From Escherichia coli (GTDB lineage Bacteria; Pseudomonadota; Gammaproteobacteria; Enterobacterales; Enterobacteriaceae): a DNA stretch of 64,000 bases. Positions 1 to 58,794 of this stretch are shown here, one piece after another; within the stretch, counting starts at the first letter, position 1; each line of letters starts with the position of its first letter. Location: the NCBI RefSeq assembly GCF_003334335.1, contig NZ_QOWQ01000011.1; one strand, given 5' to 3'. Position numbers and translations under genes: made by a program. Below the pieces are notes generated by a model. That model saw only the letters and a list, made by a program, of their open reading frames with translations. It searched no databases and was not told the DNA's origin.

Positions 1-488
1 GGGCAACCGTCCTCGACCATAGCGGTGCGCCACTGGATGAAAAACAGAAAATGGGCACCGTGGGGGCCGTGGCGTTGGATTTAGACGGCAATTTGGCGGC
101 AGCCACGTCCACAGGCGGAATGACCAATAAATTACCCGGACGAGTTGGCGATAGTCCCTTAGTGGGTGCCGGATGCTACGCCAATAACGCCAGTGTGGCG
201 GTTTCTTGTACCGGCACGGGCGAAGTCTTCATCCGCGCGCTGGCGGCATATGACATCGCCGCGTTAATGGATTACGGCGGATTAAGTCTCGCGGAAGCCT
301 GCGAGCGGGTAGTAATGGAAAAACTCCCTGCGCTTGGCGGTAGCGGTGGCTTAATCGCTATCGACCATGAAGGGAATGTCGCGCTACCGTTTAACACCGA
401 AGGAATGTATCGCGCCTGGGGCTACGCAGGCGATACGCCAACCACCGGTATCTACCGTGAAAAAGGGGACACCGTTGCCACACAGTGA
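1..488 (+). CDS. iaaA: Isoaspartyl dipeptidase / L-asparaginase, C-terminal part (5' end lies outside the window)
   Basis: Open frame from the window edge to TGA at 486..488; translation has the Ntn-hydrolase asparaginase-like stretch ([23 protein letters not shown]); sits immediately upstream of gsiA as in K-12. Confidence 0.85.
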
Positions 489-2346
489 TGAACTTGATGC
501 CGGTAATGTGCTGGCGGTTGAAAATCTGAATATTGCCTTTATGCAGGACCAGCAGAAAATAGCTGCGGTCCGCAATCTCTCTTTTAGTCTGCAACGCGGT
601 GAGACGCTGGCAATTGTTGGCGAATCCGGCTCCGGTAAGTCAGTGACTGCGTTGGCATTGATGCGCCTGTTGGAACAGGCGGGCGGTTTAGTACAGTGCG
701 ATAAAATGCTGTTGCAGCGGCGCAGTCGCGAAGTGATTGAACTTAGCGAGCAGAACGCTGCACAAATGCGCCATGTTCGCGGTGCGGATATGGCGATGAT
801 ATTTCAGGAGCCGATGACATCGCTGAACCCGGTATTTACTGTGGGTGAACAGATTGCCGAATCAATTCGTCTGCATCAGAACGCCAGTCGTGAAGAAGCG
901 ATGGTCGAGGCGAAGCGGATGCTGGATCAGGTACGCATTCCTGAGGCACAAACCATTCTTTCACGTTATCCGCATCAACTCTCTGGCGGGATGCGCCAGC
1001 GAGTGATGATTGCGATGGCGCTGTCATGCCGCCCGGCGGTGCTGATTGCCGATGAGCCAACCACCGCGCTGGATGTCACTATTCAGGCGCAGATCCTGCA
1101 ATTAATCAAAGTATTGCAAAAAGAGATGTCGATGGGCGTTATCTTTATCACTCACGATATGGGCGTGGTGGCAGAGATTGCCGATCGGGTACTGGTGATG
1201 TATCAGGGCGAGGCGGTGGAAACGGGTACCGTCGAACAGATTTTTCATGCACCGCAACATCCTTACACCCGTGCGCTGTTAGCTGCTGTTCCGCAACTTG
1301 GTGCGATGAAAGGGTTAGATTATCCCCGACGTTTCCCGTTGATATCGCTTGAACATCCAGCGAAACAGGCCCCCCCCATCGAGCAGAAAACGGTGGTGGA
1401 TGGCGAACCTGTTTTACGAGTGCGTAATCTTGTCACCCGTTTCCCTTTGCGCAGCGGTTTGTTGAATCGCGTAACGCGGGAAGTGCATGCCGTTGAGAAA
1501 GTCAGTTTTGATCTCTGGCCTGGCGAAACGCTATCGCTGGTGGGCGAGTCTGGCAGCGGTAAATCCACTACCGGGCGGGCGTTGCTGCGCCTGGTCGAAT
1601 CGCAGGGCGGCGAAATTATCTTTAACGGTCAGCGAATCGATACCTTGTCACCCGGCAAACTTCAGGCATTACGCCGGGATATTCAGTTTATTTTTCAGGA
1701 CCCTTACGCTTCGCTGGACCCACGTCAGACCATCGGTGATTCGATTATCGAACCGCTGCGTGTACACGGTTTATTGCCAGGTAAAGACGCGGCTGCACGC
1801 GTTGCGTGGTTGCTGGAGCGCGTGGGCCTGTTACCTGAACATGCCTGGCGTTACCCGCATGAGTTTTCCGGCGGTCAGCGCCAGCGCATCTGCATTGCTC
1901 GCGCGTTGGCATTGAATCCAAAAGTGATCATTGCCGACGAAGCCGTTTCGGCGCTGGATGTTTCTATTCGCGGGCAGATTATCAACTTGTTGCTCGATCT
2001 CCAGCGTGATTTCGGCATTGCGTATCTGTTTATCTCCCACGATATGGCGGTGGTAGAGCGGATTAGTCATCGTGTGGCGGTGATGTATCTCGGGCAAATT
2101 GTTGAAATTGGTCCACGGCGCGCGGTCTTCGAAAACCCGCAGCATCCTTATACGCGTAAATTACTGGCGGCAGTTCCGGTCGCTGAACCGTCCCGACAAC
2201 GACCGCAGCGTGTACTGCTGTCGGACGATCTTCCCAGCAATATTCATCTGCGTGGCGAAGAGGTGGCAGCCGTCTCGTTGCAATGCGTCGGGCCGGGGCA
2301 TTACGTCGCACAACCACAATCAGAATACGCATTCATGCGTAGATAA
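475..2346 (+). CDS. gsiA: Glutathione ABC importer ATP-binding subunit with two tandem ABC domains
   Basis: 623-aa product beginning (M)PHSDELDAG from a TTG at 475; two Walker A motifs (GESGSGKS twice) and two LSGG signatures; overlaps the iaaA 3' end by 14 nt. Confidence 0.9.
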
Positions 2347-2365: not shown

Positions 2366-3903
2366 ATGGCAAGAGCTGTACACCGTAGTGGGTTAGTGGC
2401 GCTGGGCATTGCGACAGCGTTGATGGCATCTTGTGCATTCGCTGCCAAAGATGTGGTGGTGGCGGTAGGATCGAATTTCACCACGCTCGATCCGTATGAC
2501 GCAAATGACACGTTATCTCAGCCGTAGCGAAATCGTTTTACCAGGGGCTGTTCGGTCTGGATAAAGAGATGAAACTGAAAAACGTGCTGGCGGAGAGTTA
2601 TACCGTTTCCGATGACGGCATTACTTACACCGTGAAATTGCGGGAAGGCATTAAATTCCAGGATGGCACCGATTTCAACGCCGCGGCGGTGAAAGCGAAT
2701 CTGGACCGGGCCAGCGATCCGGCGAATCATCTTAAACGCTATAACCTGTATAAGAATATTGCTAAAACGGAAGCGATCGATCCGACAACGGTAAAGATTA
2801 CCCTCAAACAGCCGTTCTCAGCGTTTATTAATATTCTTGCCCATCCGGCGACCGCGATGATTTCACCGGCAGCGCTGGAAAAATATGGCAAGGAGATTGG
2901 TTTTTATCCGGTGGGAACCGGACCGTATGAACTGGATACCTGGAATCAGACCGATTTTGTGAAGGTGAAAAAATTCGCGGGTTACTGGCAGCCAGGATTG
3001 CCCAAACTGGACAGCATAACCTGGCGTCCGGTGGCGGATAACAACACCCGCGCGGCAATGCTGCAAACCGGTGAAGCGCAGTTTGCTTTCCCCATTCCTT
3101 ACGAGCAGGCCACACTGCTGGAGAAAAACAAAAATATCGAGTTGATGGCCAGTCCGTCAATTATGCAGCGTTATATCAGTATGAACGTGACGCAAAAGCC
3201 GTTCGATAACCCGAAGGTCCGTGAGGCGCTGAATTACGCCATTAACCGTCCGGCGCTGGTGAAAGTTGCCTTTGCGGGCTATGCAACGCCAGCTACTGGT
3301 GTGGTACCGCCAAGTATCGCCTACGCGCAAAGTTATAAACCGTGGCCTTACGATCCAGTGAAAGCGCGCGAATTACTGAAAGAGGCGGGATATCCCAACG
3401 GTTTCAGTACCACGCTGTGGTCGTCACATAACCACAGCACCGCGCAGAAAGTGCTGCAATTTACCCAGCAGCAGTTAGCGCAGGTCGGGATTAAAGCCCA
3501 GGTGACTGCGATGGATGCCGGACAGCGGGCGGCAGAAGTTGAAGGTAAAGGGCAAAAAGAGAGCGGCGTGCGGATGTTCTACACTGGCTGGTCGGCTTCA
3601 ACCGGCGAAGCGGACTGGGCACTATCGCCGCTGTTTGCCTCGCAGAACTGGCCACCGACGCTGTTTAATACCGCGTTTTACAGCAATAAACAGGTGGATG
3701 ACTTCCTGGCTCAGGCACTGAAAACTAATGATCCGGCGGAAAAGACCCGCTTATATAAGGCGGCGCAGGATATCATCTGGCAAGAATCGCCGTGGATCCC
3801 GCTGGTGGTAGAAAAACTGGTGTCGGCACACAGTAAAAACCTGACCGGTTTTTGGATCATGCCAGACACCGGCTTCAGCTTTGAAGACGCGGATTTGCAA
3901 TAA
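2366..3903 (+). pseudogene. gsiB: Glutathione-binding periplasmic protein gene disrupted by a 1-bp deletion
   Basis: ATG at 2366 with GGAG 8 nt upstream; signal-peptide N-terminus [26 protein letters not shown]; frame ends at TAG 2525..2527 after ...DTLSQP; the rest of the protein continues in the -1 frame (ORF 2569..3903). Restoring one G after 2521 gives continuous [23 protein letters not shown]. Confidence 0.8.
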
Positions 3904-3920: not shown

Positions 3921-4841
3921 ATGCTTAATTACGTTATCAAACGATTACTGGGGTTGATTCCGACGCTGTTTATCGTCTCGGTGCTGGTGTTTTTATTTGT
4001 CCATATGCTGCCCGGCGATCCGGCGCGATTGATTGCCGGGCCCGAAGCTGATGCGCAGGTTATAGAACTGGTGCGTCAGCAGCTGGGGTTGGATCAGCCG
4101 CTGTATCACCAGTTCTGGCACTATATCAGCAATGCTGTGCAGGGGGATTTTGGCCTGTCGATGGTGTCGCGTCGTCCGGTTGCCGATGAGATTGCCAGCC
4201 GCTTTATGCCAACGCTGTGGCTGACCATAACCAGTATGGTCTGGGCGGTTATATTTGGTATGGCGGCGGGAATTATCGCCGCCGTCTGGCGTAACCGTTG
4301 GCCGGATCGATTGAGTATGACCATTGCGGTGTCGGGGATCTCGTTTCCGGCATTTGCTCTGGGGATGCTTTTAATTCAGGTATTCTCCGTTGAACTGGGC
4401 TGGCTGCCTACCGTGGGAGCAGACAGTTGGCAGCACTACATTTTACCCTCCCTGACGCTCGGCGCGGCAGTGGCCGCCGTGATGGCGCGCTTTACCCGCG
4501 CGTCGTTTGTCGATGTTTTAAGCGAAGATTATATGCGTACCGCGAGGGCGAAAGGGGTGAGCGAAACCTGGGTTGTCCTCAAACACGGGCTACGTAACGC
4601 GATGATCCCGGTAGTGACCATGATGGGCTTACAGTTTGGCTTTTTGCTCGGTGGTTCCATCGTTGTGGAGAAAGTTTTCAACTGGCCGGGACTTGGACGC
4701 TTACTCGTTGACTCCGTAGAAATGCGTGATTACCCGGTGATTCAGGCGGAAATTCTGCTTTTCTCGCTGGAATTTATTCTTATCAACTTAGTGGTGGATG
4801 TGCTTTACGCCGCCATTAACCCGGCTATCAGGTACAAGTAA
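3921..4841 (+). CDS. gsiC: Glutathione ABC importer permease
   Basis: 306-aa ORF, multi-pass membrane protein of the DppB/OppB type, N-terminus [17 protein letters not shown]. Confidence 0.93.
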
Positions 4842-21087: not shown

Positions 21088-22773
21088 TTATCCTAATCCT
21101 GGCCATACCATGACGATGATTGTCCCTGCCAGCGTCAGCAGGACGTTGGCGATTGCATAGGTGCCCGCATAGCCCAGCGCCGGGATGTTACTGCGAGCTG
21201 TATCACTGATGATCTCCATTGCCGGCGCGCAGGTACGTGCGCCCATCATTGCGCCGAACAACAGCGCGCGGTTCATTCGCAATACATAAGCACCGAACAA
21301 GAAACAGATAACCACGGGCACCAGACTGACAATCAATCCGGCAATCAACATCTGACCGCCAATCGCGCCCAGGCCGTTATTAATACCGCTACCGGCGCTC
21401 AGACCAACGCCTGCCATAAACACCATCAAGCCGAACTCTTTCACCATGCTTAATGCACCCTGCGGAATGTAACCGAAGGTCGGGTGGTTAGCACGCATAA
21501 AGCCCAGCATAATTCCGGCGAATAACAACCCGGCAGCGTTCCCCATGCCGAAACTGAATGTGCTGAACTGGAAGGTGATCATCCCGATCATCAGCCCAAT
21601 AACAAAGAAGGCGCAGAATGCCAGCAGGTCAGTGACCTGGCTGTGAATCGAGATAAAGCCGATGCGATCGGCGATGGTTTTTACGCGGCGGGCATCGCCG
21701 CTGACTTGTAAAACGTCACCTTTGTTAAGCACGACGTTGTCATCTATCGGCATCTCAATCTGGCTACGAATGACGCGGTTAAGGAAGCAACCGTGATCGG
21801 TCAACTTCAGTTGTGCGAGACGTTTACCTACAGCGTTATGGTTTTTAACGACCACTTCTTCAGTGACGATACGCATGTCGAGAAGGTCACGATCGAAAAC
21901 TTCTTTACCGTTACGGAAGCTGGGATCGAGTCGGGCATGGGCGTCGGGATAGCCTACCAACGCTATTTCATCGCCCATTTGTAGCACGGCATCACCGTCT
22001 GGATTTGCCAGAATCCCGTTACGTCGAATACGTTCAATGTAGCAGCCGGTTTGTCGATAAATACCCAGTTCACGCAGATTTTTGCCGTCGGTCCAGGCCA
22101 CCAGTTCCGGGCCGACGCGATAGGCGCGGATCACCGGTAAATAAACCTTACGGTTGGCATCAGTGTCCAGGCCACGTTCGCGGGCGATTTGCTGGGCGCT
22201 GGTCTGTAAGTCCTGATGCTGCAATTTCGGCAAGTAACGCGCACCAACAATCAAACTCACCAGACCGATTAAATAGGTTAAGGCATACCCGAGGCTCAGA
22301 TTATCCAGTGCCAGTGAGAGCTGCCTGCTTTCCATGCCGGAATGACGCAGTGTATCGCCAGCACCGACCAGAACCGGTGTCGACGTCATAGAGCCTGCTA
22401 ACATACCGGCCGTCAGGCCAATATCCCAGCCAAACAGCTTACCTAACCCTAAGGCGATCACCAGCGCACTGCCAACCATCACCAGTGCTAACATTAGGTA
22501 ATTTTTCCCATCGCGAAAAAAAATGGAAAAAAAGTTCGGTCCGGCTTCGACCCCGACGCAGAAAATAAACAGCATAAAGCCAAGATTAAGCGCATCGGTG
22601 TTAATGCTGAAATGTTGTTGGCCTAATAACAGCGATACGACTAAAACGCCAATGGAATTACCCAGTTGGATCGAACCAAGTCGTAACTTTCCGAGACATA
22701 GCCCAAGCGCGAGGACCACAAATAATAACAGAATGTAATTCCCATTTAACAATTCGGCGACGTTTATATTCAC
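21088..22773 (-). CDS. ybjL: Putative transporter with duplicated membrane domains and central TrkA-C domains
   Basis: 561-aa ORF; recognised as K-12 YbjL. Confidence 0.92.
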
Positions 22774-23042: not shown

Positions 23043-23420
23043 GTGAAACATAAACAACGTTGGGCGGGGGCAATCTGCTGTTTTGTCCTCTTCATTGTGG
23101 TGTGCCTTTTTCTGGCGACGCACATGAAAGGCGCTTTTCGGGCTGCCGGGCATCCTGAAATCGGCTTGCTATTTTTCATTCTTCCTGGAGCAGTCGCCAG
23201 CTTCTTTTCACAGCGTAGAGAAGTCCTGAAACCTCTGTTTGGCGCAATGCTGGCGGCACCCTGTTCGATGCTCATTATGCGGCTGTTTTTTTCACCGACG
23301 CGCTCATTCTGGCAAGAGCTGGCATGGTTACTAAGCGCGGTGTTCTGGTGTGCGCTGGGGGCACTGTGTTTCTTATTTATCAGTAGTTTGTTTAAACCAC
23401 AGCACAGAAAAAATCAGTAA
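23043..23420 (+). CDS. ybjM: Inner membrane protein of unknown function
   Basis: 125-aa ORF starting at GTG 23043 with GGAGGA upstream. Confidence 0.85.
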   Translation: MKHKQRWAGAICCFVLFIVVCLFLATHMKGAFRAAGHPEIGLLFFILPGAVASFFSQRREVLKPLFGAMLAAPCSMLIMRLFFSPTRSFWQELAWLLSAVFWCALGALCFLFISSLFKPQHRKNQ

Positions 23421-39805: not shown

Positions 39806-41236
39806 TTAATCTGTGCTTTGTTCTGCCAGTCTGGCGATTTGTTTTGCCATTCCGCGAAAAATAAACAGATGCGCGGGGATCATCAATAACCAGTAAAACA
39901 GCCCCGGCATACCGTGCGGATGCCAGAAAGCGCGGACATCGATAGTACGATAGTCGCCTTTATCTTCCAGGCTAAAACACAGTCGTCCCAGCCCCGGCGC
40001 TTTCATGCCAAATAACAACGTAAGTTGTTTTTCCGGTTCAACGACAATCACTTTCCAGCTATCCACCGCATCGCCAGTCTGTAAATATTCGCGCTCCGGG
40101 CGGCCTTTCGCCAGCTTATGACCGATCGCGCGGTCCATCAACGCCCGTGTCTGCCACAAAATATTGCCAAAGAAATAACGCTCTTTACCGCCGATTTGGT
40201 TCACTACCTGCCATAAAGCAGCAAGGCTGGCGGACGTTTTAACGGTAAACCCCGCCTGTTTGGCAAAATAACCGTACTCCGGTCGCCAGCGGGCAAAGGC
40301 CTGAGCGTCGTAGCCCCAGTCGCTGGAGTTGACCAGTTTTTCCTCCTCTTTCAACGTGCTACGTACCGCGTCATCGAAAGCGATCAGCCGTTGTGGGATG
40401 AGTGCACGTAGCGCGGTATCATCCGCCAGCAGATCGTGTTTCAGCCCCTGAATCAACGCCCTGGCGGTGGTGGGCGGTACGGAAGTAATCACATTGAGAA
40501 ACCACACCGAAATCCAGCGGGTGGGGAGGGGGATGGGGATCAACCAGCGGCGCTTACCGCTCACCGCCATAAAATGTTCAAACTGTTGCTGATAACTGAG
40601 CACCTCTGGTCCGGCGGCTTCGAAGATGCGGTGTTCGCTGGCCGGATGATCTAACAACGCAACCAGATAGTGCAGCAAGTTTTCCAGCGCAATGGGCGTG
40701 GTGCGTGAACGAACCCAGCGCGGAGGCGTTAAGACTGGCAGGTTGTAGACCATATCGCGCATGACTTCGAACGCCGCGGAACCTGCGCCAACGATAATTC
40801 CGGCCCGCAGTTCGGTCACGGGTACATTCGCTTCACGCAGAATGTCCGCCGTAGCCTGACGAGCACGCAGATGATCCGACTGCTCATGTGGCGGGGCCTG
40901 CAACGAACTAAGAAAGATTAATTGCTTAACTGGTACTTCACGTAGCGCATCGCGGACGTTGAGAGCCACCTGGCGCTCCTGAGCGATAAAATCGCCGCCT
41001 TCGCCCATGCTGTGCACCAGAAAATAGACCGTATCGATATCCTGCAACAGGGCCGGTAGGTTATCCGGCCAGCTGAGATCGACTTTATGGCAACTGACGT
41101 TTGCCAGTTGCAGCTTTGCAAGCCTGTCGACATGACGTGCCGCCGCCAGGATCTGATGCCCTTGCTGGCTGAGTGTGCGCACCAGATGCTGACCAATGTA
41201 GCCACTGGCACCGAGAACTAAAATGCGTTGCGGCAC
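39806..41236 (-). CDS. ybjT: NAD(P)-binding protein with C-terminal DUF2867 domain
   Basis: 476-aa product from GTG 41236 ((M)[17 protein letters not shown]...), Rossmann motif. Confidence 0.85.
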
Positions 41237-41246
41237 GTCTCTCTCC

Positions 41247-42248
41247 TTAACGCGCCAGGAATGCACGCCAGTGGGCGGCGACTTCCGCCAGTTGTTCGCG
41301 CGAGACGTCAAGATGCGTCACCAGGCGGACAATCGGCGAGGCGTTAATCAGCACGTTTCTCGCTTTCATGTATTCGCCTAACGCGGCAGCATTTTCTTCC
41401 CCGACGCGAACAAACAGCATATTGGTGTCCTGACGCATCACATCCGCGCCTGCTTCACGCAGCTGCTCCGCCATCCAGGCAGCGTTGTCGTGGTCTTCCT
41501 GCAAGCGCGCAACGTTATTTTTCAGGGCATATATCCCGGCGGCAGCCAGAATGCCGGACTGGCGCATCCCGCCACCTGTCATTTTCCGCCAGCGAATGGC
41601 ACGTTTAATGTAATCACGATTACCGACGAGTAATGAACCGACTGGCGTCCCAAGACCTTTCGACAGGCAAATGGTGAACGAATCACAATATTGCGTGATC
41701 TCTTTCAGTTCGCAGCCGTAAGCCACCACGGCATTAAAGATGCGCGCACCGTCAACATGCAGCGCCAGATTGCGCTCGCGGGTAAATTCCCATGCTTCTT
41801 TCAGGTATTCCCGCGGCAACACTTTGCCGTTGTGGGTGTTTTCCAGACTGAGTAATTTGGTGCGGGCGAAATGGATATCGTCGGGTTTGATTTTCATCGC
41901 CACTTTATCCAGCGGTAGCGTGCCGTCGGCAGCCGCGTCTATGGGTTGCGGTTGAATACTGCCCAGCACCGCCGCGCCACCGGCTTCAAACAGATAGTTA
42001 TGCGCGGCCTGACCGACAATATACTCTTCGCCGCGTTCGCAGTGACTGAGCAGAGCGACCAGGTTGGCCTGAGTGCCGGTAGGCAGAAAAATGGCGGCTT
42101 CTTTACCGGAAAGCTCTGCTGCGTAGTCCTGCAGAGCATTAACGGTAGGGTCGTCTCCGTAAACGTCGTCCCCAACCGGGGCGGCCATCATCGCTTCGAG
42201 CATGGCGCGGCTTGGTCGGGTAACGGTATCACTGCGTAAATCAATCAT
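41247..42248 (-). CDS. ltaE: Low-specificity L-threonine aldolase
   Basis: 333-aa ORF, N-terminus [21 protein letters not shown]. Confidence 0.93.
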
Positions 42249-58706: not shown

Positions 58707-58794
58707 GTTCACTGCCGTACAGGCAGCTTAGAAATTCACAGGTAACATACTCCACCCGCCCACCATGTTCACTGCCGTACAGACAGATAAAATG
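58707..58794 (+). CRISPR. Minimal orphan CRISPR array (type I-F repeat family): two repeats, one 32-bp spacer
   Basis: Repeat 1 gttcactgccgtacaggcagcttagaaa (58707..58734) with the internal palindrome ctgcc-gtaca-ggcag; spacer ttcacaggtaacatactccacccgcccaccat (58735..58766); repeat 2 gttcactgccgtacagacagataaaatg (58767..58794), identical for 16 nt then degenerate. No cas genes in the window. Confidence 0.75.

Follow-up and report, generated by a model that had tools for sequence, protein, structure and literature searches.

The annotated TTG start of Escherichia coli gsiA inside the end of iaaA: comparative support and a probably derived gene overlap

The question raised by this locus is where translation of gsiA, which encodes the glutathione importer's ATPase with two fused ABC domains, begins, and how its start is related to the end of the preceding gene iaaA. 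The DNA analysed, referred to below as the window, was a stretch of 64,000 nt. It was found to be E. coli K-12 DNA, with position 1 corresponding to 867046 of NC_000913.3 (an offset of 867045). All 5,426 complete E. coli genomes matched the first 3 kb of the window, and K-12 strains were nearly identical to it. Over the full length, the window showed 10 single-base differences and one 1-nt deletion at ∼2521 compared with MG1655, and because of this deletion the window coordinates beyond ∼2521 are shifted by one. In the annotation, 60 protein genes are listed for the window, the first being iaaA, represented by its 3′ part, and the last cydD.

The 3′ part of iaaA (isoaspartyl peptidase) occupies positions 1–488 of the plus strand. 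Its reading frame ends with GAA AAA GGG GAC ACC GTT GCC ACA CAG TGA, the TGA stop being located at 486–488. A TTG codon at 475–477, in the iaaA frame plus 1, is followed by CCA CAC AGT GAT GAA CTT GAT GCC GGT, which encodes PHSDELDAG and stays in frame to the stop at 2344–2346. The gsiA coding sequence read from this codon (475–2346, plus strand) encodes 623 aa and overlaps iaaA by 14 nt (475–488, plus strand), with the iaaA stop 11 nt downstream of the gsiA start. A Shine-Dalgarno sequence, AAGGGG, is present at 463–468 (plus strand) with a 6-nt spacer to the TTG and a duplex energy of −7.8 kcal/mol with the 3′ end of 16S rRNA. The preliminary description of this DNA had placed the gsiA start at this TTG, 14 nt inside the end of iaaA, and the sequence, curated RefSeq and PGAP all agreed with this placement. 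The curated gsiA of MG1655 (867520–869391) corresponds to 475–2346 of the window, the identical start was given by PGAP on another MG1655 assembly, and all sampled E. coli genomes had gsiA called from the TTG by PGAP. The reference annotation thus already contains this start, which makes the finding correct and ordinary.

The statement that the recognised N-terminus is in frame only behind a TTG was, however, too strong. Six start-capable codons occur in the gsiA frame, which is open from position 358 onward, namely ATG367, ATG376, GTG457, TTG475, GTG508 and ATG541. A public protein collection was examined for contigs carrying each N-terminal form of this exact GsiA, and all six possible forms were found to have been deposited. 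The 623-aa form was carried by at least 1000 contigs, the 612-aa and 656-aa forms by 12 each, the 659-aa form by 6, and the 629-aa and 601-aa forms by 3 each, the five alternative N-termini amounting to 36 contigs. Given these numbers and the uniform PGAP call in the sampled E. coli genomes, the view that automated callers tend to get such starts wrong was largely unsupported.

A scan of one genome per species yielded 80 loci, from which Salmonella and Klebsiella were absent, and an iaaA homologue was located upstream of gsiA in 64 of the 80. In the Enterobacteriaceae, the column aligned to TTG475 was almost always a start codon, although its identity varied. TTG was found at this position in Escherichia, Citrobacter, Superficieibacter and Pseudocitrobacter, GTG at nine loci (L008, L011–L014, L021, L026, L027 and L044), and ATG at at least eight (L009, L010, L023–L025, L034, L035 and L063). 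An in-frame stop was present 12–18 nt upstream of the gsiA start in L011, L012 and L024–L026, so that a longer GsiA is impossible there. The Shine-Dalgarno sequence was kept as AAGGGG or AAGGAG across the Enterobacteriaceae, with a duplex energy of −8.5 to −12.9 kcal/mol in most relatives with an aligned start codon, compared with the above value in E. coli. These alignments indicate that the position of the start and its Shine-Dalgarno sequence are ancestral in the Enterobacteriaceae, and that only the identity of the start codon drifts among AUG, GUG and UUG. Of 5423 E. coli genomes, 5130 carried the 61-nt junction with an identity of 99% or more, and the TTG was unchanged in the sampled junction variants.

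The codon differences on the two sides of the TTG showed distinct patterns. Over 367–474, comparison of the window with the Escherichia and Citrobacter loci gave, for the iaaA frame, 63 synonymous differences and 8 that were nonsynonymous, versus 2 synonymous and 67 nonsynonymous in the gsiA frame, implying that no gsiA-frame peptide is constrained upstream of the TTG. In gsiA codons 2–8 (PHSDELD), 34 synonymous and 12 nonsynonymous differences were observed among 14 loci; the nucleotide changes at the three codon positions numbered 9, 7 and 40, with the third position accounting for 40 of 56. This coding pattern was also present in genera in which iaaA ends upstream and there is no overlap. 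In this comparison, the coding constraint switches from the iaaA frame to the gsiA frame exactly at the TTG. The comparison with orthologue alignments, which had been proposed as a check, supported TTG475 by its start column, its Shine-Dalgarno sequence and the frame switch.

The alignments also showed how the overlap arose. In most Enterobacteriaceae, iaaA is closed by a TAA, with 10 nt separating this stop from the start of gsiA. Among the closest relatives of Escherichia and Citrobacter, the IaaA tail reads ...GIYRE* with TAA in L010–L013, L015, L018 and L044, and ...GIYQE* in L026. This TAA, which aligns with window positions 462–464, abuts the gsiA Shine-Dalgarno sequence (TAAGGAG or TAAGGGGG). 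In Escherichia and Citrobacter (L003–L007 and the window), the aligned codon at 462–464 is AAA, encoding Lys314, and the codons at 462–485 encode an 8-residue C-terminal extension of IaaA, KGDTVATQ, which was specific to these two genera among the sampled loci and ends at the TGA within gsiA. Salmonella IaaA, which we take to be 313 aa long, would match the unextended form. The overlap is thus derived: a +10 junction became a −14 overlap through one TAA to AAA stop loss in iaaA. The gsiA start and Shine-Dalgarno sequence were unmoved through this stop loss, and because TTG is common to genera that keep the TAA, the TTG predates the overlap.

We consider the following picture, taken as a whole, to be highly probable. 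In E. coli K-12, gsiA would be the second gene of an iaaA–gsiABCD operon, and its translation would start at UUG 475–477, 6 nt after AAGGGG (463–468), both elements being within the last nine sense codons of iaaA and the overlap being derived. Less firmly, the UUG site may be weak when taken alone, as it combines a UUG codon with an initiation region more structured than average. In that case, ribosomes that are translating iaaA, or terminating on it, would aid gsiA initiation by opening this structure, by re-initiating, or by both. Neither a sigma-70-like promoter in 1–475 nor a plus-strand terminator at the iaaA–gsiA junction was found, and a transcriptome-based network placed iaaA and gsiA–D together under CysB (PMC3224099). 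Co-transcription of iaaA and gsiA is therefore likely.

The predicted fold of gsiA from −30 to +15 was −9.7 kcal/mol, the fourth most structured among 58 window genes. The RNA fold of 425–535 was not significantly more stable than that of shuffled sequence (z = −1.06), so no regulatory structure is claimed for the junction. An Rfam scan of the whole window gave no match at the junction. In INRI-seq (PMC9825163), 0 CPM was obtained at the gsiA TTG in 5 replicates, with the template present at 151 CPM, and no alternative gsiA site was listed; gsiB, gsiC and gsiD were detected in the same data. The gsiA template was an isolated −30 to +150 fragment, assayed in vitro. In vivo, the Ribo-RET value at gsiA was 0. 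As ∼30% of annotated starts were undetected by INRI-seq, the gsiA null points only weakly to low efficiency. [quoted passage not shown] In addition, gsiA was not found among the TRAINSPOTTER table rows listed, the Salmonella riboproteogenomics supplements made no mention of it, and a literature search for direct gsiA start-site data gave no positive evidence. The GsiA biochemistry papers retrieved describe recombinant protein.

Coupled gene pairs have a stop and a start that overlap or lie within a few nt of each other, and iaaA and gsiA overlap by 14 nt. Common coupled overlaps in E. coli are of 4, 1 and 8 nt, and coupling has been tested in this organism with natively overlapping pairs in which the stop codons were then moved upstream (PMC10666635). 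Translational coupling of iaaA and gsiA and inefficient initiation at the TTG, both put forward in the preliminary description, are plausible; for coupling, the chances are roughly even against ordinary independent initiation. If initiation were independent, the TTG would be served by its Shine-Dalgarno sequence in the ordinary way, and the overlap would be a neutral by-product of the stop loss. This would agree with a Shine-Dalgarno sequence of reasonable strength and ideal spacing, with the local RNA fold not being significant, and with reporter assays in which UUG and GUG gave 10–100% of AUG (bioRxiv 10.1101/063800). The ancestral junction is, moreover, of the +10-nt type, a class that Huber et al. 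think may initiate independently (PMC10666635). Nevertheless, the isolated −30 to +150 fragment was silent in vitro despite abundant template, whereas gsiB, gsiC and gsiD gave signal; few genes in the window have a more structured initiation region than gsiA; and ribosomes finishing iaaA necessarily cross the gsiA start site. A TTG start with no coupling at all is somewhat less likely than not. A more far-reaching proposal is that the gsiA UUG is essentially silent alone, and that GsiA synthesis in Escherichia and Citrobacter depends obligatorily on ribosomes finishing iaaA, the stop loss having changed the IaaA:GsiA ratio. Were this the case, the TAA to AAA change would have re-wired a +10-nt junction to a −14 overlap and thereby altered the relative expression of the two proteins; we regard such obligatory coupling as rather unlikely.

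Two groups of alternative start positions were also weighed against the TTG. When possible starts between −108 and +33 relative to the TTG were compared, the Shine-Dalgarno sequence of TTG475 was the strongest; the scoring covered four alternatives, with energies of −1.5 kcal/mol at ATG367, −4.8 kcal/mol at ATG376, −3.1 kcal/mol at GTG457 and −3.1 kcal/mol at GTG508. A downstream start at GTG508 (508–510, plus strand) would give a 612-aa protein, as in the older W3110 annotation BAA35517.2. The solved ABC domains begin nearby, with query residues 9–13 aligned to residues 4–5 of Rv1281c and DppD, and the Val12 codon is GTG in many species. The 612-aa form was deposited on the 12 contigs noted above, and the lack of an initiation signal at TTG475 in INRI-seq and Ribo-RET would also accord with it. 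However, GTG508 is without a usable Shine-Dalgarno sequence and is not conserved, as L003, L005 and L007, which are the nearest relatives, have GTA or GTT in its place, and Table S3 of INRI-seq lists no alternative gsiA initiation site. Codons 2–8 are also under purifying selection, even without an iaaA overlap, and because they evolve as coding sequence, GTG508 and ATG541 are ruled out as the sole start. We therefore consider initiation at GTG508 to be very improbable.

The protein itself was examined in this respect. GsiA contains two ABC ATPase domains, at residues 12–281 and 308–575, which match Rv1281c (E = 1.4e-142), and DppD, DppF, OppD and OppF match GsiA at about 1e-78. The homologues in the PDB (Rv1281c, DppD and OppD/F) align from GsiA residue 9–13, while no GsiA structure was found there. 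As the ABC domains of the homologues start near residue 12, the first 11 residues of GsiA form an N-terminal tail.

An in-frame upstream start at ATG367 (367–369), ATG376 (376–378) or GTG457 (457–459), all on the plus strand, would give a protein of 659, 656 or 629 aa and an iaaA overlap of 32–122 nt. The two ATG codons had been named as the case that would speak against the TTG. The frame is indeed open from 358, and gene calls using the three starts have been deposited, on 6, 12 and 3 contigs, respectively. Yet none of them has a usable Shine-Dalgarno sequence, the one at ATG376 being too near to the codon. ATG367 is missing in E. albertii, ATG376 in L003, L004, L006 and E. coli MRY15-117, and GTG457 in L003–L007. 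The gsiA frame over 367–474 is unconstrained, as described above, and in-frame stops are present in this stretch in related genera. GTG457 is, in addition, contained in the INRI-seq oligo, yet no alternative gsiA site is listed there. An upstream start is accordingly the most improbable of the alternative positions, to the point of being nearly negligible. An IaaA–GsiA fusion by +1 frameshifting in the overlap was also considered and rejected, as there is no constraint on the gsiA frame ahead of the TTG and stops close that frame in other genera.

The preliminary description had further listed GTG starts for ybjM (23043), rimK (24921), potG (27945) and ybjT (41236, minus strand). With the 1-nt deletion allowed for, these were found to be the annotated MG1655 starts, and all four coding sequences translated cleanly. 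Its remark that the starts do not come from the longest ORF did not hold for ybjM and rimK. In these two genes, as in ybjL, no start codon precedes the GTG within the ORF, so that the longest ORF is already correct. The ybjM start (coding sequence 23043–23420, plus strand) has a Shine-Dalgarno sequence GGAGG of −10.3 kcal/mol and was detected at 132–184 CPM in INRI-seq and at 27 in Ribo-RET. For rimK (24921–25823, plus strand), the Ribo-RET value was 26, INRI-seq was weakly positive, and the N-terminal peptide MKIAILSR was found in the TRAINSPOTTER table at 891967.

For potG (27945–29078, plus strand), INRI-seq was weakly positive and the polymorphism pattern among E. coli strains agreed with the GTG, as 8 of 8 substitutions downstream of it were at third codon positions. 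The upstream ATG27864 is without a Shine-Dalgarno sequence, and the ten substitutions between it and the GTG showed no periodicity; they fall in two hairpins of the potF–potG spacer and include one paired C-G to A-T change. For ybjT (39806–41236, minus strand), the substitution frame switched at the GTG: 17 of 20 substitutions upstream followed the ltaE frame, 17 of 21 downstream followed the ybjT frame, and the alternative GTG at −30 was lost in two strains. One more GTG start, that of ybjL at 22773 (21088–22773, minus strand), is present in the annotation and had been missed. The start codons of the 60 coding sequences were thus 54 ATG, 5 GTG and 1 TTG, i.e. 10% non-ATG. For E. coli genes overall, 14% GUG and 3% UUG were reported, together ∼17% non-AUG (bioRxiv 10.1101/063800), and six non-ATG starts in 60 genes are by this comparison no local excess.

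Several features were observed beside these starts. The Shine-Dalgarno energy at the ybjL GTG was almost nil (−1.1 kcal/mol), and this start was detected in neither INRI-seq nor Ribo-RET; no other non-ATG start in the window has less support. The potF–potG spacer (27865–27914) contains two GC-rich hairpins, GCCGGAGGGG...CCCGCCGGC and GCGCACCAT-TAT-GGTGCGC, and was unusually polymorphic, with 327 E. coli genomes at 90–95% identity over 261 nt; the paired C-G to A-T change was seen in O157:H7. These hairpins may be an mRNA-processing or stabilising element setting the PotF:PotG ratio. At the ltaE–ybjT junction (41237–41249, minus strand), the TAA of ltaE overlaps the ybjT Shine-Dalgarno sequence TAAGGAG, with 10 nt from the stop to the GTG.

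Downstream of gsiA, gsiB (2366–3903) was found to be frameshifted, with one G missing at ∼2520–2521 (MG1655 CTCAGGCCGTAG, window CTCAGCCGTAG), which leads to a stop after codon 53 (...TLSQP*). The segment is present in 5,409 complete E. coli genomes, and the deletion in 0 of them; all were 98.4% identical, corresponding to one gap. The missing base reflects either a private mutation inactivating the glutathione importer or a sequence error. The ten SNPs relative to MG1655 are located at 3944, 18001, 28503, 34874, 38805, 46938, 49009, 52852, 60996 and 62145. Four of them are silent (in gsiC, potG, artQ and ybjS), one is intergenic, and five change a protein (ybjH A62S, lysO I292L, macA A222T, cydC Q385L and cydC R2H); 6 of the 10 are transversions. 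A single 28-nt match to the Rfam family CRISPR-DR4 was observed at 58707–58734 (plus strand), between clpA and infA beside serW, with 50 bits and E = 8.5e-9. This repeat resembles a solitary remnant of the type I-F CRISPR array site that is known between clpA and infA in E. coli strains lacking I-F cas genes.

The finding of the gsiA TTG matters little beyond annotation hygiene, because it is already the reference annotation. What the comparative analysis provides is independent support for this start, and it shows that the minority of database entries in which gsiA still begins at one of the upstream ATGs or at the downstream GTG have the wrong start. In evolutionary terms, a modest result is that iaaA lost one stop codon and that this loss created the overlap with gsiA. 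Across genera, iaaA–gsiA offers a natural pair of junction types, +10 nt versus −14 nt, which would be useful for studying the role of junction geometry in coupling.

Compared with the annotated gsiA of MG1655 (b0829, formerly yliA; NP_415350.2, 623 aa), the coordinates, the start codon and the protein in the window were all identical. The window shows no difference from MG1655 at the gsiA start, and differs from it elsewhere, by the 10 SNPs and the 1-nt gsiB deletion. M. tuberculosis Rv1281c, DppD/DppF and OppD/OppF, which belong to peptide-type ABC importers, have two ABC domains, as does GsiA. Unlike these proteins, GsiA has ∼11 extra N-terminal residues before the first beta strand, a difference that depends on the TTG call.

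With regard to junction geometry, the coupled pairs of Huber et al., which operate by termination-reinitiation (PMC6728339, PMC10666635), are on the same strand with the start within a few nt of the stop. Like them, iaaA and gsiA probably form one operon, with the Shine-Dalgarno sequence inside the upstream gene. In contrast to the common overlaps of 4, 1 and 8 nt, that of iaaA and gsiA is 14 nt, with the stop 11 nt past the start. A '+10/11 nt' junction class, in which the stop abuts the Shine-Dalgarno sequence, was described for E. coli operons (PMC10666635). The ancestral iaaA–gsiA junction (TAAGGAG, 10 nt) belongs to this class, and the ltaE–ybjT junction in the window is also of that type. 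Escherichia and Citrobacter iaaA–gsiA left it via the single TAA to AAA change.
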